From a virus, in IMG/VR virus record IMGVR_UViG_3300024262_003767: a stretch of DNA of 64,000 nt; one strand, 5' to 3'. Positions within the stretch are counted from its first letter, which is position 1. Each line of letters opens with the position of its first letter. The translations under genes and the position numbers were made by a program. Of the stretch, positions 1-39,975 are shown in pieces. The notes below the pieces were generated by a model. The model was given only the letters and a program-made list of their open reading frames with translations, did no database searches and was not told the origin of the DNA.

Positions 1-1280
1 AAGAAAAAGGCTAGTTTCTTAATATTTTTACCTTCACATTTTGGATTAACACACATAATTTCAACTCCACTTTTATTCCAAACTAACTCAGAACCACAAC
101 TTGGACAATGTGTTGGAACATCTGCTTGTGTCGGTACTGAAACTCCAACGATTTTAGGAATAACAGATCCTGAACGAATAATTTCCACAACAGCATCTTT
201 ACCAATTTTATTATCTAAAATAAATTTCGCATTATAACCAGTCGCTCTTGAAATTGTCACACCTTCAACGTCAAATGGTACAACATTCACAACAGGTTTT
301 ACATAACCATTTTTTGATGTTTCCCAATCATTGAAAAGTGTTGGTGTTGATATTGGTTTTGCCCAATCTGATTTGTATGCAATTGCGTATGATGGATTGT
401 TATTTGTTTCTCTACCTAATTGTTTTCGTAATTTTTCATCATTGACATCAAGAACAATACCATCAATTTCATATTTTTCACCCCAAGTGTAATATAATTC
501 ATCTAACATTTCTGATGTTAGTTCAGAAATGCGAATTTTTTTGAAAGGAACTTTAAATCCTGTTTCTTTTTCAATGAGTTCAATTTGTTCTAACTTGCTC
601 ATATCTTCATCAGCAACACCATAACGAACATGATCAACAAATTCCCAATAAGGCGATACTTCATCGTGATTAACTAAGCCAGCAACCATATTACGAGGAT
701 TTTTATAAGGTTCACCATTACTTCTCACAAAATTATTTTCTTCAAAAACTTGTCTTGGAATAATGAGTTCTCCAATTGTGTAAAATTCAACAGTTGATGG
801 TTTAGAATCTGTGAATGTGTTTAGATGTTCTGTGATATTTTGACCTTCAATACCATCACCTCTTGAGTGTGATACTTGTGTAAATTCATTTCTAAGTGCG
901 GAAACGCCATCATATTTGGCTGTTGCGATTAATATTGTATTTAAAGGTATACCTTTATTTTTTGCCCATTTTTTTACTTCTTCAACAGTTTTCTTTTTTT
1001 CAAGTGAGTACATTGGTTTATCCAATGTTTCCATTCTTTCTGTTGAACCTAAATCTTCAACATTTTCAATAACAGCGTTATCAAAAAGTTCATCATTTGG
1101 TTTGATTTCTTTCATTTTTTCAACTAATCTATCATAGTCTCTATCAGAAAGTTCACCACTTTTTTTACCTAAAAATTCTTGAATATCTTCTGTAAGTTCT
1201 GATATATCTACTGGATTACCAATTCTATACCTTGCATTTGAGATTAAAATTGCGTCTTTTAGGTTCTGTTGAAATGTCAT
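1..1280 (-). CDS. ligA: NAD-dependent DNA ligase (LigA), N-terminal roughly 425 aa; 3' end lies beyond the window start
   Basis: Manual translation of the minus strand from the ATG at about 1280: MTFQQNLKDAILISNARYRIGNP...; KYDGVSAL adenylation motif (KxDG); OB region; Zn finger CPSCGSELVWNKSGVEIMCVNPKCEG at positions about 1-130. Absent from the ORF track because no stop falls inside the window. Confidence 0.85.
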   Translation of the reverse strand, partial: MTFQQNLKDAILISNARYRIGNPVDISELTEDIQEFLGKKSGELSDRDYDRLVEKMKEIKPNDELFDNAVIENVEDLGSTERMETLDKPMYSLEKKKTVEEVKKWAKNKGIPLNTILIATAKYDGVSALRNEFTQVSHSRGDGIEGQNITEHLNTFTDSKPSTVEFYTIGELIIPRQVFEENNFVRSNGEPYKNPRNMVAGLVNHDEVSPYWEFVDHVRYGVADEDMSKLEQIELIEKETGFKVPFKKIRISELTSEMLDELYYTWGEKYEIDGIVLDVNDEKLRKQLGRETNNNPSYAIAYKSDWAKPISTPTLFNDWETSKNGYVKPVVNVVPFDVEGVTISRATGYNAKFILDNKIGKDAVVEIIRSGSVIPKIVGVSVPTQADVPTHCPSCGSELVWNKSGVEIMCVNPKCEGKNIKKLAFF

Positions 1281-3461: not shown

Positions 3462-3671
3462 TTATTTGTTCTTTGAAAACCATTTTCTTGTGATTTTATC
3501 GAAAATCTTATCTCCATAATATTTTATAACGGTGGCAATTGTTGATATAACAAAAGATGCAACGATACTATCAAGTAATCCGAAACCATAAAATACCATA
3601 GATATTGTTATTACTATAAATATTAGTAAAAATAAGATTTTATATTTCTCCATTATTTGTGTAACTTTCAT
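3462..3671 (-). CDS. Small membrane protein (two predicted TM helices)
   Basis: Hydrophobic stretches LFLLIFIVITISMVFYGFGLL and VASFVISTIATVI. Confidence 0.3.
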   Translation of the reverse strand: MKVTQIMEKYKILFLLIFIVITISMVFYGFGLLDSIVASFVISTIATVIKYYGDKIFDKITRKWFSKNK

Positions 3672-3689
3672 ATTATGATTTATTTATTT

Positions 3690-4088
3690 TTAGTAATAAT
3701 TTATATAATTTACAATTGGTAAAAATAAATTTTTAGGGAAATTTTTCCAATCAAACCATCCAATTTCTGTACATTTTTCAGGTTCCATAATTTTGGCATC
3801 ATACGATTTAGATTGACACCTTACAAAAATTGTAATATAATGCAAATCCTCTTCAATAAACATATCATTAGTAAATCTATCAACTTGTAAATTGATGATA
3901 TCTAGTCCTGTTTCTTCTTTTGCTTCTCTGATTGCACAATCTACAATTGTTTCAAATTTGTCTAATTTTCCACCAGGGAAACTCCAGGTTCCTTCGCTGT
4001 GAGCACCTTTTCTTTTCATTAGAAGAACTTTACCATCGTAATCTTCTATTATAACACCTACGCCTATGTGTGGTCTATTACATTTCAT
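3690..4088 (-). CDS. Nudix hydrolase
   Basis: Nudix box GGKLDKFETIVDCAIREAKEETGL (GX5EX7REUXEEXGU). Confidence 0.8.
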   Translation of the reverse strand: MKCNRPHIGVGVIIEDYDGKVLLMKRKGAHSEGTWSFPGGKLDKFETIVDCAIREAKEETGLDIINLQVDRFTNDMFIEEDLHYITIFVRCQSKSYDAKIMEPEKCTEIGWFDWKNFPKNLFLPIVNYINYY

Positions 4089-4705: not shown

Positions 4706-5215
4706 TTAAATGTTATTTTGTCTAATTATTTCTTCGAAAATAGTTGATTTTAAATCTTCATACAAATCTTCAAGTGAATTATTAATTTTCTGAGATGTTC
4801 GTATCACTCTTGTTTGTATTATTACATCATCTTTTCTTTCATATTCTGGATCTATACCAACCACTAATCTCATTGCTGTAGGTAAATATTTGCCATATTC
4901 AAATAATGTAATAGGATTTAGTGAACCTTTAGAAAACCAAAAAAGTATAATATTTGATTCTTTTAATTTATTATGTTCCCAAATGATTTGTTCTTTTAAT
5001 TTATTTCTTGATATTTTCTTTGACATTTTCTTCCGTCTCGGATTAAAAATGTCCGTGTGTTCAAACATATTTTTAGTTTGTGGATATTTTTCAGACTTTA
5101 TCTTTTCAATTATTTCATTTTGCCAATTTGGACAATTTGAAATTCCACCTGCTAAAAATAATTTAATTTTATTCAGGCTTTTAAGTTTACTCGGGGCTTC
5201 TAATATTTTTAACAT
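4706..5215 (-). CDS. Nucleoside 2-deoxyribosyltransferase / Rcl(DNPH1)-like protein
   Basis: N-terminal KLFLAGGIS resembles the NDT IYFGAGWF motif; ILFWFSKGSLNPITLFEYGKYLPTAMRLVVGIDPE aligns with the NDT catalytic-Glu region (..VGLGMELGYALSQGKYVLLVIPDE). Confidence 0.45.
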   Translation of the reverse strand: MLKILEAPSKLKSLNKIKLFLAGGISNCPNWQNEIIEKIKSEKYPQTKNMFEHTDIFNPRRKKMSKKISRNKLKEQIIWEHNKLKESNIILFWFSKGSLNPITLFEYGKYLPTAMRLVVGIDPEYERKDDVIIQTRVIRTSQKINNSLEDLYEDLKSTIFEEIIRQNNI

Positions 5216-5657: not shown

Positions 5658-6491
5658 TTATATAATTTTTAATTTTTTAAGTTTATCTTTATCATAAACT
5701 TCTATTTTTTTGTCTCTATATTGTTTTTTAAAAGCAAGATATTTATCTTTTGCATCATCTCTCCACCAGCCTTTAACTTCAACATATAAATCACAATCAA
5801 TAAGGTAAAAATCTGGTCTATATGTTCCTTCAGCATTATTATAATTGATAGGAAATGCTTCTGGTTCAAAGAACCATTCTATGTTATTTTTATCCAAATA
5901 AGTTGCATATTTTATTTCCCAAGAACTTCTCATCCACACAGAATCACCATTTTTACATTTATACCATTCACCTTTACCATGATAACATTTACCATAAAAA
6001 TTAGATTCCTTACCTCTTTTTACATTTTTACTTTTATTGATTAGCATTTTTTGATATCTTATGTTTGCTTCTATTTCGCCATATTTTTCTAACCAAACAC
6101 TAAATACTGAACGACCATACATTGGATTTTTATCACCAGACATTTTGACACTTATCTTTTTTTTAGTTTTGTCTGAATGATAATTACCTATGTTAGATTG
6201 ACTTATTTTTTTCTTTACCTCGTCTGTTCTATGCTTACCTTTAAAATGATGTGTATTATTTTTGTGCCATTCGATAAGTTTTTCAATCTTAACATCTTTA
6301 TTTGTATTCGCATTCACTTTATTAGAACACGATAAGCATAGATCATTTTTAACTGCATATCTATATTTTTTTTCTACTTCAGCATCACAATCTTTACATT
6401 TCCAAATTACAGTCTTTTCGCTACTTGGTTTCAAATCATTTGAATAATACCCAAACATATCCTTTGTTTTTTGTTCTAAAATAATACCCAT
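5658..6491 (-). CDS. Homing-endonuclease-like protein: Zn ribbon, NUMOD3 repeats, and a PD-(D/E)xK-like C-terminus
   Basis: WKCKDCDAE..CLSCSNK; NUMOD3-like KGKHRTDEVKKKISQSNIG and HSDKTKKKISVKMSGDKNPMYG; C-terminal YRPDFYLIDCDLYVEVKGWW. Confidence 0.6.
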   Translation of the reverse strand: MGIILEQKTKDMFGYYSNDLKPSSEKTVIWKCKDCDAEVEKKYRYAVKNDLCLSCSNKVNANTNKDVKIEKLIEWHKNNTHHFKGKHRTDEVKKKISQSNIGNYHSDKTKKKISVKMSGDKNPMYGRSVFSVWLEKYGEIEANIRYQKMLINKSKNVKRGKESNFYGKCYHGKGEWYKCKNGDSVWMRSSWEIKYATYLDKNNIEWFFEPEAFPINYNNAEGTYRPDFYLIDCDLYVEVKGWWRDDAKDKYLAFKKQYRDKKIEVYDKDKLKKLKII

Positions 6492-6554: not shown

Positions 6555-7016
6555 TTATATTATATATTTCCAAAATTCTTCAGGTAAATGAATATTTGTT
6601 AAAAACAAAACATTTTTAAATAATGGTGCAATGTCTGATGCTGCATAACCTGCTAACCCGCAACCTATTGGAGTAACTAAAAATATTTGTTCCTTATGTT
6701 TACAAGCATATTCAATAAAATTACCAACATACTTTTGGATTTCGATTACTGATAATGTTTTAATATTTTTATCTTTTGTTGGTATTGCATATGTTTGACC
6801 CTGAATTCCTTCACCTTGACCATAAATTGCGCCCCATTTAATTGCTTGTTTTGCTGCCCCTTTACCATGTCTTCCCGATTTGTTAGATCCAAAAATAAAC
6901 ACTTCATTGTCTTTTAATTTAGTAATTTTTTCTGGTGTTACTCTTTTTTCTTTATTAATATATTTACTATCACTAAAGTAAGAACCTCTCATTGCTTCTG
7001 ATCTTCCATCTGACAT
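6555..7016 (-). CDS. Glycine-rich Rossmann-like protein (SLOG/LOG/DprA-like?), function unknown
   Basis: FIFGSNKSGRHGKGAAKQAIKWGAIYGQGEGIQGQTYAIPTKD and TPIGCGLAGY glycine-rich loops; no confident family match. Confidence 0.25.
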   Translation of the reverse strand: MSDGRSEAMRGSYFSDSKYINKEKRVTPEKITKLKDNEVFIFGSNKSGRHGKGAAKQAIKWGAIYGQGEGIQGQTYAIPTKDKNIKTLSVIEIQKYVGNFIEYACKHKEQIFLVTPIGCGLAGYAASDIAPLFKNVLFLTNIHLPEEFWKYII

Positions 7017-7139
7017 TGTTTTAATTGTTTTAATTTTAATTTTCTTAAATAACTATTTAATCCTTTTTCATTATTTACAAAATGTGATAACCCCATATTT
7101 TATATAATGTATTTTACTTTTTGTGATTTGTTTAAATAA

Positions 7140-7166
7140 AAAAAGGGCTACAATAGCCCTTTTTCA
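7140..7166. terminator. Hairpin with flanking A/T runs at the 3' end of minus ORF 7148..7390
   Basis: AAAAAAAGGGCT-acaat-AGCCCTTTTT. Confidence 0.5.
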
Positions 7167-7838
7167 ATCCATTTTCCATTAATTTTAACTTTATCAAGTT
7201 TTGTTAATGTAAATCTCCATTTTTCAGGAAAATCTAATAATCTTAGATTCATTTGTGTTACCATTTTATGAGCAGTTTTATACTCATTTTGATTAGTGTT
7301 CACCTCTATCAATTGATAAGGTGCGTGATACCCATTACGGTGTATCAGATCAACTCTCCAAAGTTGACATCTTTCGCTTGTGTTTGCCATAATCTGAACT
7401 AGTCAGACTACGATGTATTAAAATACCTCATACAACTATATATTATTTATTCTGTGTGAAGTTTTCTTATTTTTGATTTTTTATTTAGTTCATCAAGTTT
7501 CATCTTTCTCAACGCCAAATTACCTAAAAATCGTTTAACAGTGGTCCAAACCATGGTGCCTTTATCACCTTGTATTTTTATTTTACCTGGTTTTTTATCT
7601 AAAACTTTATATACCTTACCAACTGTAAAAGATTGTATCTTTTCTGCTGTTCCATTTTTAGAAAATCTTGGATCAAATGATAAATCTCTATCATCAAAAC
7701 ACAATATAGTATCACCTATATTACAATCTCCATGTTTCAACAACATTCTATCAAGTTCTATTTGTTTTTGGTAGAAATGTAAATTATAAAATTTTTTTGA
7801 ACGTAATTTATTTATCATATAATGATATATGATAAACT

Positions 7839-8660
7839 TTAAGAAATGTTTTCAAGTTTTAATGCTCTGATTTGTTTTTTAGAAAAAATATTAGTTTTTG
7901 ACTTCTTTATTAAATGTGAAAATATTTTATTTTGTATTAATTTTTTCTTTACGGAAAAATCCGCATTTACTATTTTTTCTTCAAATTCAATTAAACATTC
8001 AGGCTCACGACCATCACCTAAATAAACTTTATCTCCTACTGTGTGAAACCAAAACCATTCTATTTTAATGTCATTTTCTTTAAACAATTTATCTACTTCT
8101 GAACTTAAATAATAATAAAAATATGTTAATAATTCAGTTAAAAATTCAGTTTCAGAAAATCCATCATTACTATTTAAATAATAATACCAAAAATTACTAG
8201 GTTCAACACCTAACTCAAGACAAAGATTATCAATTTTATCAATATTTTTGTTGGTTTTATTAAAAACATAGTCATTAAACAAACTTTTAAATGATTTAGT
8301 ATCTCCATTACCTTTATCACAATTACATTTTGAACACATTGTCTGATAATTGGTAGAAGTGTTTTTACCACCTTTAGATTTTGGTATGATGTGATCTTTC
8401 GTCATTAAAATTTCATCACCGTTTTCATTTACACCATACATATTGATGTGATATTTTTCAATTTCGGGTAAATGCTTCTCAATTGCTAAAAAAATTCCTT
8501 CAAGTCCACATTCAACACAGAATCTATTTTCTTGAAATAATTTGTATCGTTGTGAGGTTATCTTAACAGTAACCCCGTTAATTGTTCGGTATCTATTTGG
8601 TCCTACACTATCCTTTAGTTTTTTTAAATAACTTATATCTAATTTACTATGTCTTATCAT
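7839..8660 (-). CDS. HNH endonuclease
   Basis: HIIPKSKGGKNTSTNYQTMCSKCNCDKGNG HNH motif with Cys ligands. Confidence 0.75.
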   Translation of the reverse strand: MIRHSKLDISYLKKLKDSVGPNRYRTINGVTVKITSQRYKLFQENRFCVECGLEGIFLAIEKHLPEIEKYHINMYGVNENGDEILMTKDHIIPKSKGGKNTSTNYQTMCSKCNCDKGNGDTKSFKSLFNDYVFNKTNKNIDKIDNLCLELGVEPSNFWYYYLNSNDGFSETEFLTELLTYFYYYLSSEVDKLFKENDIKIEWFWFHTVGDKVYLGDGREPECLIEFEEKIVNADFSVKKKLIQNKIFSHLIKKSKTNIFSKKQIRALKLENIS

Positions 8661-8675
8661 CTTTTTATTTAAAAA

Positions 8676-9188
8676 TTATTTCAGGTAAATAGGATCAACG
8701 TGATCAACTAACCATACACCATTTTCTGATTGATAAAATTTAATTTTATCAACAATCATTGGATAAGTATCAATTTTGAAGATATATGGAGTATCATTTT
8801 TACAATATCTATTTGCAACATCTAAAGCAGTATCATAATCAGCACTTAGATGTACATGATTTCTTTTCATTTTAGAAAGTCCATTTTTTCTAATTGATTT
8901 AACATTTCTAGATGCTGTGCCGTGATATAAAAATTTTGGTGGCATCTTTGATTTCAATTCAACATCAACTTTTAAAGAATGTCCTTGATTTGCTCTAATT
9001 TTAGTTTCATCTTCATTAAAACTAAATCTTTTCTTATCATTATTATCTACAATCCATTGTAAATCTTCAAATGATATATTAACTTTATTCAATAAATCAT
9101 CAACATCAACCCAACCATTTTTATCCATAGACAAATCTTCTGGGTTATGTCTTAATAAATAACTTATTTGTATTCCTTTATTTTTCAT
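8676..9188 (-). CDS. kptA: RNA 2'-phosphotransferase Tpt1/KptA
   Basis: LSYLLRHNPEDL...NGWVDVDDLL, RANQGHS, HGTASRNVKSIRKNGLSKMKRNHVHL, matching Tpt1 family conserved blocks. Confidence 0.8.
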   Translation of the reverse strand: MKNKGIQISYLLRHNPEDLSMDKNGWVDVDDLLNKVNISFEDLQWIVDNNDKKRFSFNEDETKIRANQGHSLKVDVELKSKMPPKFLYHGTASRNVKSIRKNGLSKMKRNHVHLSADYDTALDVANRYCKNDTPYIFKIDTYPMIVDKIKFYQSENGVWLVDHVDPIYLK

Positions 9189-9227
9189 TTATTCCTTTAT
9201 TTTTCATCTATTTTATCTAATTACTCA

Positions 9228-9689
9228 TTATAATTGATTAAGTTTTAATTTTCTATTTTCTTTAATGAAAGAATTGTTGATTTTATTCCATAATTGTTCT
9301 TCTGAAAGTAGTTTTTGTATTTTATCATCAGAACAATACTCACATAAATATTTTTGTTTGATTAATCCCAAACAGACAGGACAATCTATGTCGCCATATT
9401 TACAGCCGTGGTTAATACAACAATGAGTTTCATGTACACCATATTTTTCCTTGGGTATTGTCGTTTTACCTTTTTTTACAGCTATCTCTTTTTCTTTTTG
9501 TTTTCGTTCAAACTCAGTTGTACTTTTGATATCTTCTAAAATATCATCACAAGTGAATTTGGAAAATTGATCTGATAATTTTTCATCCAAACCTTCAGTT
9601 CTCATTTTTTTAATAAAATCCGAAAATTCTTTCCTTTGCTCTTCATTTAAAGCAAATATTAAACTTGATATATCACTAAACATCTTCAT
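9228..9689 (-). CDS. Cys-cluster (putative Zn-binding) hypothetical protein
   Basis: HCCINHGCKYGDIDCPVCLG...CEYC. Confidence 0.3.
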   Translation of the reverse strand: MKMFSDISSLIFALNEEQRKEFSDFIKKMRTEGLDEKLSDQFSKFTCDDILEDIKSTTEFERKQKEKEIAVKKGKTTIPKEKYGVHETHCCINHGCKYGDIDCPVCLGLIKQKYLCEYCSDDKIQKLLSEEQLWNKINNSFIKENRKLKLNQL

Positions 9690-10019
9690 CTTTCAACTTA
9701 TTATAAATTTCAAAATCAACACTACCATCTTCATTAATGTATTGTTCGTAAGTAAACTCACAACATGCTCTAATATGCATCATTGAAAATCCTTTTCGGT
9801 GACACATACACATACAAATATTTTCTTTTTTCTTTTCCATACGGCAAATATAAACAAAAATATGTAAATAAAAAATGTTCACTAAATAGAAAATGTGTTC
9901 GTTTTTGATGCACATTTTTAATTCATTATTATCACATTATTATATAATATAATGCTAATTAAGTACTTAGTATTTTTGGCACACTTTATGAGATAGTAAT
10001 AAAAAACAATATAGAAATT

Positions 10020-10265
10020 ATGAAAAATTACTTTAAACAAAGATTAAAAAGAGACAAACAAAATAAGATGATTGCTGGCGTTTGTTCAGGAATCGCAAAT
10101 TATTTTGATGTAGATCCAGTATTAGTAAGATCGGTATTTCTCGTTGGATTATTAATGCCGATTAATGGTTTTCCATTGATATATATTGTATTATGGATTT
10201 TAACACCATACGAAGAAGTTGAAGTTAAACATTATAGTAATGAAAAATATTCAGATGAAAAATAA
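10020..10265 (+). CDS. PspC-domain membrane protein
   Basis: LKRDKQNKMIAGVCSGIANYFDVDPVLVRSVFLVGLL....IYIVLWILTP matches the PspC domain consensus. Confidence 0.75.
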   Translation: MKNYFKQRLKRDKQNKMIAGVCSGIANYFDVDPVLVRSVFLVGLLMPINGFPLIYIVLWILTPYEEVEVKHYSNEKYSDEK

Positions 10266-10275
10266 AATTAATAAA

Positions 10276-10515
10276 ATGAAAACAATGAAAACTATGCTAA
10301 TAATTTTAGCAATCCTAATGTTAGGAACAACACTTGGAACATCAACACCAAAAGTAAATGAATCTATTTTTGATTTTCCTGAAGAAGAATATATTGATGA
10401 TATTCCTTTTGATACAGATAAGGTAATTAACCAGGACACTTTTAAAATGGAAGAAGAAGGTTATATTGATGATATTCCATTTAATACAGAAAAAGTTGTA
10501 GAAGAATTATCATAA
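10276..10515 (+). CDS. Secreted small protein with a tandem acidic repeat (start re-assigned to the internal ATG)
   Basis: Signal-peptide-like MKTMKTMLIILAILMLGTTLG; repeats EEEYIDDIPFDTDKV / EEGYIDDIPFNTEKV. Confidence 0.4.
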   Translation: MKTMKTMLIILAILMLGTTLGTSTPKVNESIFDFPEEEYIDDIPFDTDKVINQDTFKMEEEGYIDDIPFNTEKVVEELS

Positions 10516-11070
10516 TTCCTCTACAACTATATTTGTCTTATTGTGTTCGTGATCTGAATAAATATATTTACTTCCAAATAATGGCACTTCTTTCAAATTA
10601 TCTTTTACATACTTACCCCCCATTCCTTTCTTAACATAAGCAATTGTCATGTGTGCATGATAATCTGGATGATTATTTGTGTATTCAAATCTAAAGCACA
10701 TAGTCTTATTAAGTTCTCTTAACTTATCTGAGTGAATATCAAATTTAACAACATCATATTCATCTTGTTCAAATATTGTTATATCACCTCTCATAATATC
10801 ATCTATATCTTCCAATTTAGGTAAATATGTTTTGATATCTTTTGCTATACCATCATAGTGATGAAATCCATATAAAATTGTACAATGTGCCTCATCTTCA
10901 TATCCATAATCATTTGTATCATCATCATCTTGTGATGTGTAAATATCTTCTTCTGGTATCATTCTTCTAATAAATTCGATCCAATTACTAAAAGAAAAAT
11001 ATAACATCAGACAACCTAATTTTGGTTTATCATCTTCCATATAGTTATCAAATTTTAGTATTTCAGCCAT
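10510..11070 (-). CDS. 2H phosphoesterase superfamily protein (LigT/CPDase/Acb1-like); start re-assigned to MAEILKF
   Basis: Two H-x-T-x motifs (AHCTILYG and AHMTIAYV) about 65 aa apart. Confidence 0.65.
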   Translation of the reverse strand: MAEILKFDNYMEDDKPKLGCLMLYFSFSNWIEFIRRMIPEEDIYTSQDDDDTNDYGYEDEAHCTILYGFHHYDGIAKDIKTYLPKLEDIDDIMRGDITIFEQDEYDVVKFDIHSDKLRELNKTMCFRFEYTNNHPDYHAHMTIAYVKKGMGGKYVKDNLKEVPLFGSKYIYSDHEHNKTNIVVEEL

Positions 11071-11120
11071 AATTTTAATGCTTTTTCTTTTATATATAAA
11101 TAAAAATATTTTTTGTTTAA

Positions 11121-11684
11121 ATGACTGAAAATTTAATAATTGTTGATGTACAACCAACATATAACAAATTTATAGATTTTGATATTGGTGAATTTGTTAG
11201 TTGGATAAATAACTCATCTTTTGATGAGGTTTTTTGTTTATATAATGGTCCTGAATTAGGTTATGAAGATGATGAATGGAGAATATCAAATTGGTATTAT
11301 GATTGGGGATTAGATAGGGATATAAGTTTTAGATTTTTTGAAAAATCTTATGGTTGGTTTCGTGATTTTATGGAAGATATGGATGATGATAATATAATTT
11401 CTATTGGTAAATATATGATAGAACACGACATATGGGATTCGAGATATTTTAAAAAGAAAGATATAAAAATTTTAAAAGATAGAGGAATAAGTACAAGGTA
11501 TTTAGGTAAAGAAAGTAGAGTAATGTATATACCTGAATTAAAAGATTACTTATCAAATAATATATATACTAACGAAGAAATTATTATTTGTGGTGGTGGT
11601 GTCGATGAATGTTACAAAGAAGTTAATATGTTATTGGAAATGATGGGATATAAATTTAAAGAAAAAATAAAATTTGTCTATTAA
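11121..11684 (+). CDS. Isochorismatase-like hydrolase (weak)
   Basis: N-terminal IIVDVQPTY and C-terminal IIICGGGVDECYKEV...GYKF resemble isochorismatase-family motifs. Confidence 0.3.
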   Translation: MTENLIIVDVQPTYNKFIDFDIGEFVSWINNSSFDEVFCLYNGPELGYEDDEWRISNWYYDWGLDRDISFRFFEKSYGWFRDFMEDMDDDNIISIGKYMIEHDIWDSRYFKKKDIKILKDRGISTRYLGKESRVMYIPELKDYLSNNIYTNEEIIICGGGVDECYKEVNMLLEMMGYKFKEKIKFVY

Positions 11685-12703
11685 TGTATAGTAAAGAACC
11701 AATTATAAAGTTATTAACATCTATGATCAAATCTTATGTAGAATATGGAGATGAGATAGGTTATACAAAAAAAGAGATGGATGATATTATTGAAAAATAT
11801 GAGTTATTATATTTAGATTATGACTATAACGATGCAATCTTATTATATGACGAAAAATATGTAACAAAAAAAGAGTTTACAGATAAAATTCGTGAACTTT
11901 TTGATGATGCCCAAAATGGTCATTTAGATATTGATATCGTAGAATATATTGAGTTTTTAGAAAAAAATAGTTTAGTTAATATTTGTATAGATAAAATGGA
12001 ACGATCTGATATTAAAAAAGATGATGATGGTAATTGGTATTTTTATGCAAAAGGTGGTTGGGATTATTTTTGTGATTGGTTTAAGGTTGATAGTGATTAT
12101 AGAGACAATGTTGTTAAAATGATATTAAATGGTGAAGGTTATGAATTGTTTGATTATAATCCTAGCGATTATTCTGATTTTTCGTATATAAATATAAATG
12201 ATGATAATTTGAAATATTTGAAAACTATTGTTCAAAATATGAAAGATGATTTTGAACTTGATCAAGATGAAATAGATAATATAGGTGATATAGATGATGT
12301 TTATAGTATTGCTAAAAATAATGATTTAGATGATTTAGAGACTGCATTAACAATGGTAAATTGTAGAGCGCAGGGTTATGCTGATGAGGGTGAAGCATAT
12401 GACTACACAACTAATCTAATTCTAGAACATTTTAATCTTACTCTTGATGGATTAAAATGGGTAAAATTTAATAAAAATTCCGAATATGATGATACTTTAA
12501 AAATAAAATTTAAAGATGAAGAATCCGCAAAAAATGCTATAATTTTATTATATAAGATCGAAAATAGAACTTATGATGATGATGATTTTTTTATAGAATG
12601 GAGTTCACCCTACGGTGGTTGGATTGGAGACGCAGATAAATATATTGATGATGAAATACAAGAAAGAGTTCCAGATTATGTTGATGAAAAATATTTGCCT
12701 TAA
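11684..12703 (+). CDS. Acidic hypothetical protein (D/E/Y-rich)
   Basis: ORF with 4-nt start/stop overlap with the upstream gene; no recognisable domain. Confidence 0.3.
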   Translation: MYSKEPIIKLLTSMIKSYVEYGDEIGYTKKEMDDIIEKYELLYLDYDYNDAILLYDEKYVTKKEFTDKIRELFDDAQNGHLDIDIVEYIEFLEKNSLVNICIDKMERSDIKKDDDGNWYFYAKGGWDYFCDWFKVDSDYRDNVVKMILNGEGYELFDYNPSDYSDFSYININDDNLKYLKTIVQNMKDDFELDQDEIDNIGDIDDVYSIAKNNDLDDLETALTMVNCRAQGYADEGEAYDYTTNLILEHFNLTLDGLKWVKFNKNSEYDDTLKIKFKDEESAKNAIILLYKIENRTYDDDDFFIEWSSPYGGWIGDADKYIDDEIQERVPDYVDEKYLP

Positions 12704-13767
12704 AAAATTAATATATACAGTACAATGAAAAGATTGAAAAAGTTAAACGAATTATTTTTTGATAGAAGTGAATTAGATGATGGTAATGTTAGATTTTACC
12801 TATTAAATCCCGATACAAATAAAGGTTTTGCGTTTGATGTAGAACGTGAAGATATGAATACTTTAGAAGATATCCTGAAACGCAACAATGTAGTATATGA
12901 AATTGATGATGGTGGAAATGATTTACCGTTTTAAAAAATGAAATAAAAAATTAAATATATACATTTGGAAAATAAAATACAACACATGTTTAAAAATACC
13001 TCTGAAAGATTTAAAGATATGAATTTCGGGCAAAAAATAATTATCGGCATTTTAACAACCGTTGGTGCCGCAATAATTATAGGGTTATTTATTATGGCAA
13101 CAAAAGTATATTCTTTTGAAGTTGATATAACAGACATTAAAGGTGATATGAAAGAAAAAGCGGCAATAGAGTATGTTGACAAATCTATCGAAAATATAGA
13201 TATTAGTGTTGGTACAAATGGCGAAAAAATAAAAGCTATCAAAGAAGAAGATATCAAAGACATAAAGGAAGGTATCAAAGATTTAAATAATAAAATAGAT
13301 GAAAACCAAAAATTCATCCTTGAGTATATCAAAAACAAATAAAAATTTCCATAAATTATACATTTTTTAAACTTCACAATATTTTTTAATATATAATCAT
13401 CAAATTAAAAAATAATTTGTGATATGAAAAGAAAATATAGTGATTATTTGGACGCATCAGGAAATTGGCAATTATTAGTAAATGGTGACGAAGATAGTTG
13501 GTGGGATTATAAAGGTGATTGTATTGAAAGAATTTTAGAATTATTAAGTTCAGAAAGTGGTTTACAGGAATTTGATTATGAAGGTGACATTCTAGATTTA
13601 GAAGATCTTAAATATGAATTGGAAAGTCTTTCTGAAGAAGATTTTTATACTGTATTAGAAGAAATAAAAAGAGAGTGTGATTTTTCAGGTGATATTAAAA
13701 TGTTTAATATATCAGATGAAGATGAAATAGATTTCTTAAAAGAAGAAAAAGAGTATTACGATTTCGA

Positions 13768-17500: not shown

Positions 17501-18367
17501 ATGACGAAAGTAGATTACAAAACGAATTATATTGAACCTCAAGATTTTAACCTCTTAATTTCAAAATTAAGAGGATTTTTTATGGAAAATGGTTTCCTTG
17601 AGACATTTCCACAACCTAAATTAACAATACTTGCAGCGTGTGAAGACCCAAAAACTGTTAGAAGTTTTGAATTTGGTGGTGAAAAATTTCCACTACCCCA
17701 AACAAATCAGATGAACTTGGAAGAAGAACTTATGGTAGACTCAACAATAGATGGACTTTTTTGCTTAACAGCATCATATAGAGATGAACCAAACCCTATT
17801 GAAGGTCGCCACATGAAATCATTTCCAATGTTTGAAGCAGAACATAAAGGGGATTTTTCAAATCTAATACAAACAATAAGTGAGTGTTGTGTGTATTTAG
17901 GTTTAGTCGAAAAGGTTGCCGATATCCCAATATTCACATATGATGAACTTTGTGAACATTATAAAGTTGAAGATTTAACTTCTACTGAAGAAACATTGAT
18001 GTGTAAAGAATATGGTGATGTTGTCGCTATTACTATGTTTCCTGATAGGACAGATCCATTTTTCAACATGCGTGTTGATGGTTGTAACTTAAAAGGTGAA
18101 AAATTGTCCAACAAAGTAGATTTTATTGTTTGTGGACAGGAAACATTTGGTTGTGCTGAAAGAGAGATAGACATAAACTTAATGAGGAATAACTTCCACA
18201 CAATTAGTAATGGCGGGTATTCTGGACTATTATTTGAAAAATTTGGTAAGGAAAGAGTTGAAAAGGAATTGGAAGACTTTTTGAAATTGCCAATGATTGA
18301 AAGGTGGGGATTTGGTTGTGGTTTGACTAGATTATCAAGAGCAATGAAAAAGAAAGGATTAATTTAA
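17501..18367 (+). CDS. Class II aminoacyl-tRNA synthetase catalytic-core paralogue (EpmA/PoxA- or AsnA-like), no anticodon-binding domain
   Basis: Aligns block by block with E. coli EpmA: LLISKLRGFFMENGFLETFPQPKLT (motif 1 region), YRDEPNPIEGRHMKSFPMFEAE (motif 2, fRxE...H.pEFTMLE), RWGFGCGLTRLSRAM (motif 3, G.G.G.DR). Confidence 0.65.
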   Translation: MTKVDYKTNYIEPQDFNLLISKLRGFFMENGFLETFPQPKLTILAACEDPKTVRSFEFGGEKFPLPQTNQMNLEEELMVDSTIDGLFCLTASYRDEPNPIEGRHMKSFPMFEAEHKGDFSNLIQTISECCVYLGLVEKVADIPIFTYDELCEHYKVEDLTSTEETLMCKEYGDVVAITMFPDRTDPFFNMRVDGCNLKGEKLSNKVDFIVCGQETFGCAEREIDINLMRNNFHTISNGGYSGLLFEKFGKERVEKELEDFLKLPMIERWGFGCGLTRLSRAMKKKGLI

Positions 18368-19362
18368 TTAATCCTTTCTTTTTTTAGTAAAATATAATTT
18401 TTACTGATGGAATTATTTATTATTCCTTCATAACTTATTCTATTTGAACCTATCAAATTTAATTTGATATTAAGTTCATTAAAATATTTTCTCATTTCAT
18501 TTCTACCTTGAAATTCTTCAATTTTATCATCTGGACATTTTATTGTATATAACATCAATTTTCTATGTGACATTTGTGATGATTTATTTGTTCTTTTATT
18601 TACACTCCAACTCATATTTCGATAATCATTAGATTTATTATATAGATTATATCCTTTAGATCCATTTTTATATAATATTGCTGCTGGGCTTATTTTGTGT
18701 TTACCTGTTAATTTTTTTTCTTCATTCAATTCTCTAAAATACCCATGTACATTTTTTGAACCACTCATTTTTATTATATCTCCTTGTGGTGTCTTTATTT
18801 CATAAATTACTGATAGTGTTTTTTTTATTTTGTCAATAGTAATGCTAGTTTTATTTTTTTTGTAATTGGCGTTTTTGTGTGTCTCATAATACCTTTTTAA
18901 AGAGTCTCCAATTTTTTTCAATTTAGTTGCACTTCGTTTACTTTCTTGAAATTTTTTTGATATTTTTAACGATGCTGATATATTCTTTTTATGTTTATCT
19001 GTAAAAATTACACCACTTTCACCTTCACCACCATCACTTAAATTTATTAATGATCCTAATTTTAAATCTTTCCTTCCTATCTTTTTTATTGTAAGTTTTT
19101 CTAAATTAAATGATATATTTTCCTTTAAATTTTCATACAATTTAATAATTATTGGTTCTACCCCACTCTCTCTAATTTTTTTAATTTTATAGTACCGTAT
19201 TTTACTTTTTTTTATAACACTTTCATATAAGTGTACTTTAAATCTATCACCCTTACCTTTACCGACATAAAATGGTTCATGATCAAAAATTAAATCATCA
19301 AAAATATATTTACCAGGTTTTCTTGGATCTAAATAAACATAAACATAAAATTCATCACACAT
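18364..19362 (-). CDS. GIY-YIG homing endonuclease
   Basis: N-terminal YVYVYLDPRKPG...FYVGKGKGDR (GIY...YIG) with catalytic R and later E/N. Confidence 0.8.
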   Translation of the reverse strand: MCDEFYVYVYLDPRKPGKYIFDDLIFDHEPFYVGKGKGDRFKVHLYESVIKKSKIRYYKIKKIRESGVEPIIIKLYENLKENISFNLEKLTIKKIGRKDLKLGSLINLSDGGEGESGVIFTDKHKKNISASLKISKKFQESKRSATKLKKIGDSLKRYYETHKNANYKKNKTSITIDKIKKTLSVIYEIKTPQGDIIKMSGSKNVHGYFRELNEEKKLTGKHKISPAAILYKNGSKGYNLYNKSNDYRNMSWSVNKRTNKSSQMSHRKLMLYTIKCPDDKIEEFQGRNEMRKYFNELNIKLNLIGSNRISYEGIINNSISKNYILLKKERIN

Positions 19363-24113: not shown

Positions 24114-24923
24114 TTATTTGATATTTACAACATAAAATGCTTTCTTCTTATGAAGAACATCAATGAAAGTGATGCTAGTGTTGTCACCTTTATATGGTTT
24201 TAAAGTGTGAACATCACCACAAGGATTATGTCCAACTATCTGATGATATCCAACTATTGGTTTATTTGCCAATTCTTTATCTAACCATAGTGGTCCACCT
24301 ACTTTACAATGTCCACCTCTACGATGACCAACATCAAACATACATTCCATTCTATGAGTAAATGCCAAATTCAATTTATCTGCAAGGTTGTTGATTGTAT
24401 AATCAATTTCCATTCTTTTTAGAAATTCTTCTACTTTATAGAATTCTTTATCAAATCTAGTATTGTACCAACCTTTGTGTACGCCTGCGTGAGTGAATAG
24501 ATAATTTTCAACTTGAAATGCCATTTGAAACAACTCAAAGTTTTTATTAAATAGTTCATATAAATCAAATCGCATTTCTGGACGATAACCACTACATTCA
24601 TATTTATTGCTATGAATCCAAGGTGAAGTTAATGCGTAATGTAATTCGTGATTACCCCACAACAGAATAACATTCCGTGGATAAAGTGTTTTGAATTTAA
24701 TTAAATCAATTATATTTTCTCGTATCTGATTGTTATCTTTATCAAAAGCATCACAGTAGTCACCAAGAAAAACATAATAATCATAATCCATATCAACAAT
24801 ATCATATATCTGGTTGCCTTCTTCCATTTGAAGAAGGTAACTGATATCGGCAAAAGTTTTCCAAACATTTCTACCGTGCAAATCTCCTATGACCATTATT
24901 TTTTTCATAATGCAAAGATACAA
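24114..24923 (-). CDS. PPP-family (lambda-phosphatase-like) Ser/Thr/Tyr protein phosphatase
   Basis: VIGDLHG, GDYCDAFD, WGNHE, THAG, GHNP phosphoesterase motifs in lambda-PPase order. Confidence 0.7.
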   Translation of the reverse strand: MYLCIMKKIMVIGDLHGRNVWKTFADISYLLQMEEGNQIYDIVDMDYDYYVFLGDYCDAFDKDNNQIRENIIDLIKFKTLYPRNVILLWGNHELHYALTSPWIHSNKYECSGYRPEMRFDLYELFNKNFELFQMAFQVENYLFTHAGVHKGWYNTRFDKEFYKVEEFLKRMEIDYTINNLADKLNLAFTHRMECMFDVGHRRGGHCKVGGPLWLDKELANKPIVGYHQIVGHNPCGDVHTLKPYKGDNTSITFIDVLHKKKAFYVVNIK

Positions 24924-27352: not shown

Positions 27353-28216
27353 TTAATTTAATTCACCTTCCCAAACAATTTTATATTCATATTTACCTGG
27401 TAGTAGTATAATTTCTCTTTGATTTGTATGGTAATATTGTGTTGGTAATTTCTGTACGTCAACTAGTACATCTTTAGGTTGTACTTCCATCATAATAACA
27501 AAAGGTGGTGATGATGGTTGTTCATCCACAAATCTTCTAGCCACTAATATATTTGTAGTCCAAGATGTCGACATATTGAAATCGGATATAACTTTTTCAC
27601 CAACTTTGTATGGTGGGGTTTTTTTTGAAAAATGTTTTATTTGAACTTCTTCAATACCTTTATAAATCTTTAAAGGTTTATCTGGTTTAAAAGGTTTTAA
27701 TTCGTCTATAATATCTTGTGTTAATTTTGATAATAACAAAGAGCCAGAACCTATATATGAATATAACCAATCATCAGTTTTTTCAGATAATTCAACATTT
27801 ATCCTTTCAGGTGTATGTTTATCATATTTAGTAAATCCTCCAATGTAACGAAAAGATATCACATCTCCATTTTTAATTCTTGCTAACCATTCACCTGTTA
27901 TTGAATGTTTATAAAAATAACCAGAATAATCATCAACATCAACTTCTTCATCTTCACTAAATCCAAAAAAATCTACAATTTGTTTATATAGAGGTTTTTT
28001 TGTTTTAATTTGATAGATATATTCACTATTTATATCAGATGCGTCTGCTCTATTTGTTAAATAGATTCTTTTTAAATGATTTAGATTACTAAAATCTATA
28101 TCTTCTAATTTTAATGGTTCATCAGAATATAAATATAAATTTCCATTATATGTTTTTTGATCGTAATCTACTTCATTATAATCTACAAGTTCAAATAATT
28201 TGAATTTAGTTATCAT
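27353..28216 (-). CDS. Hypothetical protein with a possible C-terminal ADP-ribosyltransferase-like domain
   Basis: FNMSTSWTT (STS) followed about 55 aa later by NQREIILLPG (Q-x-E); upstream IYKG in the position of the YRG Arg; overlaps the CCA-enzyme gene by 11 nt. Confidence 0.3.
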   Translation of the reverse strand: MITKFKLFELVDYNEVDYDQKTYNGNLYLYSDEPLKLEDIDFSNLNHLKRIYLTNRADASDINSEYIYQIKTKKPLYKQIVDFFGFSEDEEVDVDDYSGYFYKHSITGEWLARIKNGDVISFRYIGGFTKYDKHTPERINVELSEKTDDWLYSYIGSGSLLLSKLTQDIIDELKPFKPDKPLKIYKGIEEVQIKHFSKKTPPYKVGEKVISDFNMSTSWTTNILVARRFVDEQPSSPPFVIMMEVQPKDVLVDVQKLPTQYYHTNQREIILLPGKYEYKIVWEGELN

Positions 28217-29465
28217 TCATAAGATATTCATTTTTGAAACGCACAATCTCTCGTCTTTTCTTTTCTATTTCAATTTCAATTCCTTTGAAACCTTCAGCAG
28301 CTAAATCATTACCATTAACCACAAATCCATCATTACAATAATCAACAAATGGTTTATAGAATTCTTCACCCAAAAACTCATAAATTAAATCATCATCAAT
28401 ATGATATTGATTTTTCATTTTAGCCAAACCGTAAACATTTGAAACGTCAATGTTTTTAAATGATTTCCAATGTAAATCTAATTCCTTCTCAAGTTTGAGC
28501 AAAAATTCAATCTGGTTCACTAACTTGGAACTAAATTTCAATTCACTAATCATATATTTTCTCAATTTACGAATATCATTATCACGAAGTAAATGTGCAA
28601 ATAATATTGCGGAAATAGGTTTTGGTGTAAATCCATCGGGAGATATTTTCAATTTGGGAAACATTTGTTCCCACATATCATATTCAGTTAATAGTCTGAT
28701 ATAATTTTCTAATATTTTGTTTCCGCCTTTTTCTGCGTGTTCAATTACCTTATTCCATTCTTCATGTATTCTTTCTTGTGATACATCTTCTTTGGTACTT
28801 ATACCACGTAGTCTGTTATCACTTTTAATGGCTCTTGATGTCTCAGGTGATATGATACCACCTTTTCTACCTTGGGCTCTTGCAGCGAATCTAAATACTC
28901 TTAAAATTCTTAATCTATCTTCTTTAAATCTCTCAGCAGGATCACCAACAGCACGTATAACATTATTTTCAATATCTTTAACTCCACCAACCAAATCTAC
29001 AATTTCTTTTTTATTTATATCATAGAAAAGAGCATTGATAGTTAAATCTCTACGTTTAACATCATCTTCGATTGTAATATGGTTTCCAATTTCTACTTTA
29101 TCATCATCACCTTTTGTATCTCTACCTCCAGAAATATCTTTTCTAAAAGTTGCTAATTCGTGTCCGAGTGGTTCATCTTCAGTATAAATTCTAAGTACGC
29201 CAAAATTTTTACCTTGTTCATCAGAAACATTCCAACCTTTCAAAATTCTTTTACTTTCTTCTGGTAGAGCATTTGTGACTAAATCAAAATCATGTGGTAT
29301 CTTTTTTTGCAAAAAATCACGAACCGCTCCACCAACAACATAGATATCTTTACCAGCATTATTGAAGGCTCTTGATATTTCTTTAATGTCATAAGGAATA
29401 GGCATCTCAACAGAGATAGTATTTTCAGTTATAAATTCTAAATATTTTTTTAATTTTTCTACCAT
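28206..29465 (-). CDS. cca: tRNA nucleotidyltransferase (class II CCA-adding enzyme / polyA-polymerase head domain)
   Basis: VVGGAVRDFLQKKIPHDFDLV (GGxVRD...DxD) and RRDLTINALFYD motifs. Confidence 0.85.
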   Translation of the reverse strand: MVEKLKKYLEFITENTISVEMPIPYDIKEISRAFNNAGKDIYVVGGAVRDFLQKKIPHDFDLVTNALPEESKRILKGWNVSDEQGKNFGVLRIYTEDEPLGHELATFRKDISGGRDTKGDDDKVEIGNHITIEDDVKRRDLTINALFYDINKKEIVDLVGGVKDIENNVIRAVGDPAERFKEDRLRILRVFRFAARAQGRKGGIISPETSRAIKSDNRLRGISTKEDVSQERIHEEWNKVIEHAEKGGNKILENYIRLLTEYDMWEQMFPKLKISPDGFTPKPISAILFAHLLRDNDIRKLRKYMISELKFSSKLVNQIEFLLKLEKELDLHWKSFKNIDVSNVYGLAKMKNQYHIDDDLIYEFLGEEFYKPFVDYCNDGFVVNGNDLAAEGFKGIEIEIEKKRREIVRFKNEYLMNDN

Positions 29466-39402: not shown

Positions 39403-39912
39403 ATGAATTGGTATGTAATACGAGTAGTAACTAGTAAAGAAAAGAAAACAAAAGAATTAATTGAAAAAGAATTGGAACTATATAAATTAGATAATAAAGT
39501 GTCTCAAATTTTGGTTCCAAGTAAGAAAGTGATGCAAATGAGAAATGGTAAAAAATATACTATTGAAAAGAATGATTTTCCAGGATATATTCTCATCGAA
39601 ACGGATAAAGTTGATGAACTAGTTTCAACTATTAAAAATGTTTCAAATGTTTTAGGGTTTTTAGGTGTGACTCACCCAGAACCACTAAGGCAAAGAGAGG
39701 TGGAAACAATCGTTGGTAGACAAAATAACACAATAGTTGAAGATAAATATTTTATTGGTGAAGTTGTAAAAGTCACCGACGGTCCTTTTAACTCATTTGT
39801 TGGTGAAATTATTCTAGTGAATGATAAGAAGAAAGCTGTAAAAGTGAACATTAAAGTTTTTGGACGTGATGTTCCAGTAGATTTGACTTATATTCAGATA
39901 GAAAAGAATTAG
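39403..39912 (+). CDS. nusG: Transcription antitermination factor NusG
   Basis: NGN domain MNWYVIRVVTSKEKK; KOW GEVVKVTDGPFNSFVGEIILVNDKKKAVKVNIKVFGRDVPVDL. Confidence 0.9.
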   Translation: MNWYVIRVVTSKEKKTKELIEKELELYKLDNKVSQILVPSKKVMQMRNGKKYTIEKNDFPGYILIETDKVDELVSTIKNVSNVLGFLGVTHPEPLRQREVETIVGRQNNTIVEDKYFIGEVVKVTDGPFNSFVGEIILVNDKKKAVKVNIKVFGRDVPVDLTYIQIEKN

Positions 39913-39930
39913 AACAAAAACTTTTCTAAA

Positions 39931-39960
39931 CAAAAAAAGAGGCTCACGCCTCTTTTTTTG
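39931..39960. terminator. Bidirectional intrinsic terminator between nusG(+) and the S1 gene(-)
   Basis: AAAAAAAGAGGC-tcac-GCCTCTTTTTTT. Confidence 0.75.
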
Positions 39961-39975
39961 TTTAGAAAAAATGGA

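Follow-up and report, generated by a model that had tools for sequence, protein, structure and literature searches.

Gene sets that combine the RNA 2'-phosphotransferase Tpt1/KptA with a 2H phosphoesterase have been predicted to carry out NAD+-dependent RNA repair in jumbo phages (Iyer, Burroughs, Anantharaman and Aravind, Viruses 2021, PMC7824862, section 3.4.9; Viruses 2022, PMC9503650, sections 3.4.5 and 3.7.3), the proposed role being the clearance of 2',3'-cyclic phosphate and 2'-phosphate ends produced by host nucleases. In the pathway by which fungi and plants splice and repair tRNA, the Trl1 ligase-kinase-CPD protein acts with Tpt1, followed by Cpd1 and Poa1 for Appr>p. Phage end healing also counters tRNA cleavage in T4, where Pnkp and Rnl1 act against the PrrC anticodon nuclease, although there the cyclic phosphate is removed by a HAD phosphatase and neither a 2H enzyme nor Tpt1 is needed. 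End healing is coupled to CCA addition in the HD-domain CCA-adding enzyme of E. coli, for which Yakunin et al. in 2004 reportedly described 2',3'-cyclic phosphodiesterase, 2'-nucleotidase and phosphatase activities. A further phage-encoded 2H-fold protein with two HxT motifs is the anti-CBASS nuclease Acb1 (phage T4 gp57B; phage FBB1 structures 7t26 and 7t27).

The window, by which we mean the whole 64-kb stretch of DNA analysed, derives from a large low-GC phage. As in the predicted jumbo phage systems, Tpt1 and 2H genes are found in a genome that also carries a CCA enzyme, a Nudix hydrolase, NADAR (just outside the window) and NAD-salvage genes (PncA/PncB). Unlike in those systems, approximately 72 kb of this phage showed neither an RNA ligase nor a Macro domain or Pnkp, the genes lie scattered without being co-transcribed, and the 2H clade scores equally for Acb1 and LigT.

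The Tpt1 and 2H genes and their surroundings

The features of the window considered here are as follows.

3690..4088, minus strand: NUDIX hydrolase (PF00293, 1.9e-21)
6555..7016, minus strand: A1S_2505-family phage non-structural protein (phrog_2072; NF049995, 1.9e-42)
7148..7818, minus strand: two small ORFs, of 80 and 123 aa, with conservation in L005
7839..8660, minus strand: HNH endonuclease protein (HNH_5, 1.6e-12; HNH domain at residues ~86-119)
8676..9188, minus strand: Tpt1/KptA RNA 2'-phosphotransferase, 170 aa, full-length (PF01885, 6.6e-47)
9228..9689, minus strand: Cys-rich protein, 153 aa, just upstream of Tpt1
10020..10515, plus strand: PspC-domain protein (81 aa; PspC, 5.6e-22) and small membrane protein (91 aa)
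10494..10528, no strand assigned: hairpin with a 16-bp stem where the 2H gene and the plus-strand membrane ORF meet tail to tail
10510..11070, minus strand: 2H phosphoesterase, 186 aa, HxT motifs at residues 62-64 and 140-142
11121..11684, plus strand: 187-aa protein with a probable isochorismatase/nicotinamidase-like cysteine-hydrolase fold, transcribed divergently from the 2H gene
11684..12703, plus strand: acidic protein, 339 aa
24114..24923, minus strand: calcineurin-like metallophosphoesterase (Metallophos, 2.2e-10)
28206..29465, minus strand: Class II CCA-adding enzyme / poly(A) polymerase head domain (PolyA_pol, 1.5e-30)

Profile matches and the catalytic tetrad identify the 8676..9188 product as a genuine Tpt1/KptA and predicted enzyme, confirming the call made in the original prediction, which had left the Tpt1 motifs to a profile search. 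PF01885 matched residues 7-162 at 160.3 bits, well over its cut-off of 26, and covered profile positions 9-176 of 177; NCBIfam equivalog models gave 197.5 bits, under their strict 239-bit cut-off. Matches were also obtained to phrog_5470 (1.6e-57) and to Runella Tpt1 (PDB 7kw8, 1.1e-39), whilst an exact-sequence look-up returned no match. The tetrad R13-H14-R65-R109 is intact, with all four residues invariant in the homologue alignment and aligned to the Runella protein at its LRH, IRANQGHS and RHHVHLS segments. The second enzyme is likewise as first proposed, having a confident 2H fold and two HxT motifs. Among 38 homologues H62-C-T64 is invariant, and in H140-M-T142 the threonine is invariant and the histidine present in at least 90%. 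In the viral scan for this protein a single-sequence query gave nothing and an alignment-based query worked.

The two genes lie 1.3 kb apart in separate transcription units. The PspC and membrane ORFs, which are missing in the relative L007, sit between the Tpt1 unit and the 2H gene on the opposite strand, and the hairpin at 10494..10528 is likely a bidirectional terminator. A sigma-70 promoter scan was discarded because shuffled sequence matched more often than the window itself. The HNH nuclease noted earlier was recovered; its C-terminal domain (residues 122-272) has a free-standing counterpart in L007, encoded directly after Tpt1, and the HNH part is probably a homing-endonuclease-type insertion. 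Conservation of the Cys-rich protein is confined to its C-terminal Cys cluster, which L007 and L009 encode as ORFs of 79-95 aa; L005 lacks the protein. The description of the 6555..7016 product as SLOG-like found no support: it belongs to the widespread A1S_2505 family (2863 homologues), has no PDB sequence match and was not matched by hhalign to the DrHyd-type protein at 4706-5215. This family has no specific link to Tpt1 or 2H, with Tpt1 at none of 80 A1S_2505 loci, and a literature search on it was uninformative. Residues D9, K75 and C164 of the 187-aa protein are conserved. Its adjacency to 2H is lost in distant homologues and therefore no functional link is claimed. Elsewhere in the window, 27353-28216 was considered as an ADP-ribosyltransferase on the strength of STS and Q-x-E-I-I-L-L-P-G motifs and rejected, as support came neither from PDB or PHROGs nor from comparing it with the ART-PolyVal region of L012.

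Search for an RNA ligase and kinase

No relatives of Rnl1, Rnl2, RtcB or Pnk were detected in the window or in the 8.6 kb beyond its left end, bearing out the earlier observation that no recognisable RNA ligase is encoded here. Searches by jackhmmer with T4 Rnl1 and Rnl2 seeds retrieved Rnl1 genes at other loci and none in the window. The only convincing KxDG motif in the window is that of an NAD-dependent DNA ligase (3-1280), and the RtcB motif is carried by no real ORF of the window. It had been suggested that a ligase might lie among four ORFs, which the present data contradict: 7447..7818 and 9228..9689 are too small, 11121..11684 was rejected for its probable isochorismatase/nicotinamidase-like fold, and 11684..12703 shows no invariant lysine when 18 sequences are aligned and has no Pfam, PHROG or PDB match.

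In L007 and L009 a P-loop kinase is encoded beside the 2H gene, matching AAA_33 above cut-off and carrying a T4-Pnk-like P-loop and NRD motif. As similarity to T4 Pnk spans just ~50 residues, these proteins are termed P-loop kinases and not Pnk orthologues. The 2H and Tpt1 enzymes, together with this kinase, which has no phosphatase domain, resemble the non-ligase activities of the fungal and plant pathway. The differences from that pathway are that no ligase domain of the Trl1 or Rnl1 type was detected, that each enzyme is a small protein of its own, that the window has no kinase and that the kinase of the relatives is Pnk-like only in the P-loop and NRD region. The window likewise differs from T4, having no T4 Pnk, Rnl1 or Rnl2 homologue.

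Recurrence of the Tpt1-2H pair and association with CCA addition

L005, L007 and L220, all close relatives, retain the pair, which is co-directional in L007, whilst the genes between Tpt1 and 2H vary among relatives. A metagenome scan yielded few further close relatives. The pair also recurs in a distinct phage lineage (Tpt1 51% identical, 2H 42%) in a cassette of the order NADAR-Macro-Tpt1-(Thg1-like)-metallophosphatase-2H-YqeY; here the metallophosphatase between Tpt1 and 2H is a homologue of the 24114..24923 product. The NADAR-Macro-Tpt1 cassette was found in L001/L002, L095, L102-104 and the TARA scaffold L234. A 2H gene of this type lies near Tpt1 at 6 of 43 Tpt1 loci compared with 1 of 80 control loci. 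Other phage Tpt1 genes adjoin a bifunctional Pnkp (L094), Rnl1 (L090/91) or a Thg1-like enzyme (12/43 loci). Within 10 kb of 2H loci a Pnk relative was present at 6/80 (1/80 in controls) and YqeY at 9/80 (1/80 in controls). The compared loci are not phylogenetically independent, so that all such enrichments are suggestive only.

The presence of a CCA-adding enzyme at 28206..29465, another element of the original prediction, is supported by its PolyA_pol match. The gene lies 19 kb from the Tpt1 and 2H genes and its product is a candidate partner acting downstream in the repair of tRNA 3' ends. In L022/L243 a CCA-adding enzyme and a 2H protein of this clade form a fusion, an arrangement analogous to the E. 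coli enzyme, although in the window CCA enzyme no HD domain was detected and 2H and Tpt1 would provide the healing in trans, as we infer. Other members lie within polyvalent proteins alongside CCA and ART domains (L012, L055/56), and some have Pol-beta nucleotidyltransferase fusions with a CCA gene 2-3 kb upstream. A CCA enzyme was encoded within 10 kb at 12/80 2H loci, compared with 4/80 controls, and at 0/43 Tpt1 loci.

These comparisons bear on whether the proximity of Tpt1 and 2H reflects only chance or simple synteny, the two having unrelated roles in a mosaic region riddled with homing endonucleases; Tpt1 might, for example, cap RNA or DNA 5'-phosphate ends with ADP-ribose, and a 5'-phosphate ADP-ribosylating activity of Tpt1 exists (PMC6182162). 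The separate transcription units and the differing intervening genes are consistent with this, as are the lack of Tpt1 at all 80 other loci of this 2H clade and the cultured phages AR1086-1 and Y3, whose Tpt1 genes have no 2H gene nearby. We nevertheless consider chance an unlikely explanation, as a second lineage, sharing almost no other window genes, also has the two genes within 1-3.5 kb of each other, and Tpt1 and 2H are each independently associated with tRNA-repair genes.

A proposed role in RNA end healing

Our leading interpretation, which we rate at about an even chance of being correct, is that Tpt1 and 2H form the core of a dispersed NAD+-dependent toolkit of a large phage for healing RNA ends, mainly those of tRNA. 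Its target would be host ribonucleases leaving 2',3'-cyclic phosphate ends. The Tpt1 step might take place on the healed end itself, after which the phage CCA enzyme would rebuild the tRNA 3' end with no ligase, or at the junction once a ligase from elsewhere in the genome or from the host has sealed it. The ADP-ribose by-products could then be disposed of by the 2H enzyme, the Nudix hydrolase (3690..4088 being a candidate clean-up enzyme for ADP-ribose derivatives) and NADAR of the same phage. Every substrate in this scheme, and the order of its steps, is inferred. The original prediction of a tRNA/RNA repair or counter-defence module thus stands in part: gene context, including the recurring Tpt1-2H pair and the CCA fusions, leans to tRNA repair, but the two genes are not co-transcribed and the 2H clade does not generally travel with Tpt1.

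More specific versions of such repair appear improbable, to about the degree that chance proximity does. In a ligase-free version the cyclic phosphate would be opened by 2H, the terminal 2'-phosphate stripped by Tpt1 with NAD+ and the acceptor end rebuilt by the CCA enzyme. Some Tpt1 enzymes take off terminal 2'-phosphates, but the one from Runella, which among characterised homologues is the closest, is inept at this reaction (PMC6573784), which weakens the ligase-free route. Alternatively, 2'-phosphate-dependent sealing of the fungal and plant type would be performed by a ligase of an unrecognised family, for which the candidates are a gene outside the window or a 387-aa ORF following the 2H gene in L009, which has no Pfam, PHROG or PDB match.

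Less probable again is a role of the 2H protein as an Acb1-type anti-signalling nuclease against host cyclic oligonucleotides (CBASS or type III CRISPR), with Tpt1 a mere neighbour in an accessory island. Acb1 (PF23474) is the best single-sequence Pfam match (4.6e-5; 23.6 bits, below the gathering cut-off of 27) and Acb1 7t27 the top Foldseek neighbour (7e-6), with 9q2g also found; precomputed PF23474 matches are present on many members of the clade, and some members lie inside injected polyvalent proteins with anti-restriction domains. Matches of the family profile to PDB Acb1 chains (2.8e-3 and 0.072) were weaker than that to LigT-like PH0099. The LigT/ThpR model PF13563 reached 22.2 bits (cut-off 27) and TIGR02258 15.2 bits (cut-off 65.7) on the window protein, whilst six of the eight larger clade members scanned exceeded the PF13563 cut-off widely (35-52 bits). 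The window protein may accordingly be LigT/CPDase-like or Acb1-like. A literature search on BCSR5 phosphodiesterase was without result. Similarly doubtful is a reading that overlaps our preferred one save for the 2H substrate, which would be the Appr>p released by Tpt1, RNA ends being healed otherwise: with Tpt1 at 0/80 other 2H loci this cannot be the general substrate of the clade, and the 2H-CCA fusions point to RNA ends.

The Tpt1 and 2H set of this phage adds one more case to the gene sets predicted earlier in jumbo phages and is not a new type of system; as it fits those comparative-genomic predictions, its value lies in providing a testable example and in the evidence from 2H-CCA fusions. 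What role Tpt1/KptA plays in bacteria and phages without a Trl1-type ligase is a question to which the Shuman laboratory has returned several times (for example PMC6573784). A lineage of phages in which Tpt1 stays next to 2H, with relatives contributing a kinase and sister 2H proteins fused to CCA-adding enzymes, offers a compact natural system for testing that role. If true, ligase-free repair or sealing by an unrecognised ligase would provide the physiological substrate that has long been missing for Tpt1 of bacteria and phages.

Identity and arrangement of the Tpt1 and 2H genes

All ORFs named in the original prediction were present in the window, and its central gene assignments held. The features concerned are:

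3-1280 (-), NAD-dependent (LigA-type) DNA ligase, running off the left end (7898-9859, 653 aa, in L217, another assembly of the same phage)
6555-7016 (-), A1S_2505-family protein
7839-8660 (-), composite protein with an HNH domain, as predicted
8676-9188 (-), Tpt1/KptA (PF01885, 6.6e-47; phrog_5470, 1.6e-57)
10510-11070 (-), 2H phosphoesterase (two HxT motifs, AF2 2H fold)
11121-11684 (+), conserved 187-aa protein
28206-29465, CCA-adding-type nucleotidyltransferase, in which no HD domain was detected

Both profiles identified Tpt1 unambiguously and its catalytic tetrad (Arg13-His14-Arg65-Arg109) was intact; the nearest solved structure was Runella slithyformis Tpt1 (1.1e-39). As a single sequence the 2H protein fell slightly below the Pfam cut-offs for Acb1 and for 2_5_RNA_ligase2. 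It has 44 homologues; in the family H62-x-T64 showed no variation and H140-x-T142 little or none, the profile matched LigT-like PH0099 (3.6e-4) and Acb1 (2.8e-3), and the AF2 model (pLDDT 88.9) had a clear 2H fold.

From 9915 to 6555 the minus strand carries a small ORF, a Cys-rich protein, Tpt1, the HNH protein, two small ORFs and the A1S_2505 gene. This unit is set apart from the 2H gene by two plus-strand genes, which encode a PspC-domain protein and a membrane protein, and by a hairpin (10494-10528) whose perfect 16-bp stem, at the tail-to-tail overlap of the 2H gene and the membrane-protein ORF, is likely a bidirectional terminator. The 2H gene and the 187-aa gene are divergently transcribed. 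Given this layout, Tpt1 and 2H are neighbours and do not form an operon. Among close relatives, locus L005 (2H 80% identical) retains the 2H, PspC, Tpt1 and HNH genes without the Cys-rich and A1S genes; in locus L007 (2H 64% identical) 2H and Tpt1 are co-directional and PspC is absent. The C-terminal 150 residues of the HNH protein correspond to a separate L007 ORF (12496-12945) abutting the Tpt1 stop codon. As this ORF matches only the non-HNH half, the HNH domain looks from the sequences like a mobile insertion: the window lineage gained it by insertion and fusion, or L007 lost it.

The RNA ligase, neighbouring proteins and wider genome

The ligase partner had been expected to be either absent or one of the nearby unknowns. 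When T4 Rnl1, Rnl2 and Pnk (from NC_000866) served as seeds for iterative searching, such genes came up in other loci, and no relatives were found in the 64-kb window or in L217, which reaches 8.6 kb past the left end (ENA k141_1281268). The sole convincing ligase motif in the window was that of the NAD-dependent DNA ligase. The 11684-12703 product is one of a family of 31 proteins that lacks an invariant lysine and matches nothing in Pfam or PDB, and the proteins at 7447-7818 (123 aa) and 9228-9689 (153 aa) are smaller than any known RNA ligase. An RNA ligase is genuinely missing from the neighbourhood and not concealed among the unknowns.

A P-loop kinase (244-252 aa) lies beside the 2H gene in L007 (6345-7103) and in a further close relative, L009 (9233-9967), where it is directly upstream. 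It is AAA_33/KTI12-like, scoring above the AAA_33 cut-off, with a T4-Pnk-like P-loop and an NRD motif and no phosphatase domain, its likeness to T4 Pnk being confined to some 50 residues. The window has no counterpart; a 125-aa coiled-coil/membrane ORF (12965-13342) occupies the corresponding position. Directly 3' of the L009 2H gene, a 387-aa ORF (10669-11832) starts with an 'LYHGS' motif recalling ART-fold enzymes and has no match in Pfam, PHROG or PDB.

The protein at 6555-7016 had been described as SLOG-like; its family has homologues in thousands, and no connection to SLOG or any other fold was found. The 187-aa protein matches nothing in Pfam or PHROG; its confident model (pLDDT 92.5) predicts an isochorismatase/nicotinamidase-like hydrolase fold with conserved Asp9, Lys75 and Cys164. 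Tpt1 releases nicotinamide in its reaction, and a functional tie between the two proteins is speculative; distant homologues of the 187-aa protein do not adjoin 2H. The same phage encodes a second isochorismatase-like protein, PncA-like, among these further genes:

1422-2321, 5658-6491, 18364-19362 and 37324-38334, free-standing endonuclease-like genes
17501-18367 (+), truncated class II aaRS-like protein, 288 aa
27353-28216 (-), 287-aa ORF with an 11-nt overlap into the end of the CCA-enzyme gene
31774-33954, PAS-histidine kinase with a receiver-like tail
39403-41106, NusG-like and S1-domain proteins
46956-49472, ClpB-like chaperone
50077-51375 and 51377-52078, adjoining PncB and PncA-like isochorismatase-family protein (NAD salvage)
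58112-61279 (-), SbcC-like protein
61267-62148 (-), 293-aa ORF with a weak DUF7487 match
62192-62848 (-), SbcD-like metallophosphatase

The window (26% G+C) is densely packed in phage style, with several homing endonucleases and no tRNA genes found; the 293-aa ORF between the SbcC- and SbcD-like genes looks like a homing-endonuclease-type insertion. The window's S1-domain and aaRS-like proteins, an AP endonuclease, PncB and the PncA-like protein, the homing endonucleases and the NusG-, ClpB-, SbcC- and thymidine-kinase-like ORFs, the last four identified by eye only, are auxiliaries typical of large phages; the aaRS-like, NusG-like/S1-domain, ClpB-like and histidine kinase sites hold translation or regulation auxiliaries uncommon among phages. 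Motifs of the 27353-28216 ORF ('STS' and 'Q-R-E-I-I-L-L-P-G') resemble the STS/ARTT motifs of C3-like ADP-ribosyltransferases, an assignment that found no support in databases or pairwise comparison. Farther left than the DNA ligase, L217 carries two TPM_phosphatase genes, LemA, NADAR (3483-3929) and a DUF4326 gene. At the DNA level the window resembles isolated phages only in short stretches under the Tpt1, HNH and A1S_2505 genes.

Gene neighbourhoods and fusions of the 2H clade

IMG/VR loci with 10-kb flanks on either side were collected around the window's 2H clade, Tpt1 and, as a rough control, A1S_2505, and scored by profiles with Pfam-verified labels.

Loci with each family within 10 kb; the loci are not independent, so the counts are only suggestive
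Family; 2H loci; Tpt1 loci; A1S_2505 control
Tpt1; 0/80; 43/43; 0/80
Window's 2H clade; 80/80; 6/43; 1/80
Thg1-like; 1/80; 12/43; 1/80
Metallophosphatase; 2/80; 8/43 (11/43 by looser BLAST clustering); 3/80
NADAR; 0/80; 10/43; 5/80
Macro; 0/80; 7/43; 0/80
YqeY; 9/80; 9/43; 1/80
Rnl1; 3/80; 2/43; 2/80
Pnk; 6/80; 1/43 (L094, bifunctional Pnkp adjoining Tpt1); 1/80
CCA-adding enzyme; 12/80; 0/43; 4/80
Nudix; 19/80; 5/43; 7/80

The Tpt1-2H pairing is not general for either gene. It recurs in a second lineage that otherwise shares almost nothing with the window, and all six Tpt1 loci with the window's 2H clade (L001/L002, L095, L102-104) carry one cassette, NADAR-Macro-Tpt1-(Thg1-like)-metallophosphatase-2H-YqeY (7672-13468 in L001), a compact island joining tRNA repair with ADP-ribose clean-up. 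TARA scaffold L234 has a partial version (Tpt1-metallophosphatase-2H-YqeY). L099 is a further locus of this cassette, and near some members there are also ADP-ribosylglycohydrolase and NMNAT-Nudix genes.

Of the new results, the most informative is the fusion of this 2H clade to tRNA nucleotidyltransferases. Stand-alone proteins like the window's make up 64/80 clade members, and the following are fused (polyvalent proteins, 1373-2417 aa):

L022 9695-11758 (= L243), 2H and CCA-adding enzyme, 687 aa
L012 6755-10876, polyvalent protein with CCA, ART-PolyVal and 2H
L055 4913-12166 (= L056), polyvalent protein with SAM lyase, ART, 2H, CCA and a second CPD-like domain resembling fungal tRNA-ligase CPD
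L020 9221-10912 and L242 9230-10954, Pol-beta-nucleotidyltransferase (domain confirmed) and 2H

Proteins in L015, L024 and L026 have an N-terminal region homologous to the Pol-beta-nucleotidyltransferase-2H proteins, whose genes have a CCA gene 2-3 kb upstream. These fusions link the clade more strongly with RNA 3'-end chemistry than with the breakdown of cyclic oligonucleotides.

Possible role of the pair

The role we favour, with about an even chance of being correct, is NAD+-dependent RNA end healing. The 2H protein would open a 2',3'-cyclic phosphate to leave a 2'-phosphate, as LigT and Trl1-CPD enzymes generally do; Tpt1 would strip that phosphate, and the repaired 3'-OH end would pass to the CCA-adding enzyme or an unlinked ligase, ADP-ribose by-products being cleared by Nudix, NADAR and possibly 2H. 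Some Tpt1 enzymes remove terminal 2'-phosphates; the closest one characterised, from Runella, fails to do so (PMC6573784), and this weakens the ligase-free version. Three rival readings each have a smaller chance of being correct. Coincidental neighbours would fit the separate transcription of the two genes, and the recurrence of the pair in a second lineage would not be expected of them. A 2H protein confined to Appr>p, the cyclic phosphate made by Tpt1, would leave the nucleotidyltransferase fusions aside. An Acb1-like anti-signalling enzyme agrees with the profile match to Acb1 and poorly with those fusions. The predicted repair or counter-defence module is partly supported: in its gene identities and in lacking a nearby ligase, and not in a ligase hidden among the unknowns or a SLOG-like protein.

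Among 50,697 records of isolated phages, 97 carry a Tpt1 annotation, and almost all of these are jumbo phages; 2H was not next to it in the two of them inspected. Iyer et al. listed 2H, KptA, Macro, NADAR, Nudix, CCA-adding enzyme and Thg1 as jumbo-phage RNA-repair components (PMC7824862 section 3.4.9; PMC9503650 sections 3.4.5, 3.7.3), with KptA in some serving NAD+-dependent tRNA restoration (PMC7824862; PMC9503650); the window's set therefore belongs to a known kind, hitherto only predicted. Its value lies mainly in the chance to test the substrate of a phage Tpt1 and in the 2H-CCA fusions, a pointer to tRNA 3'-end repair.
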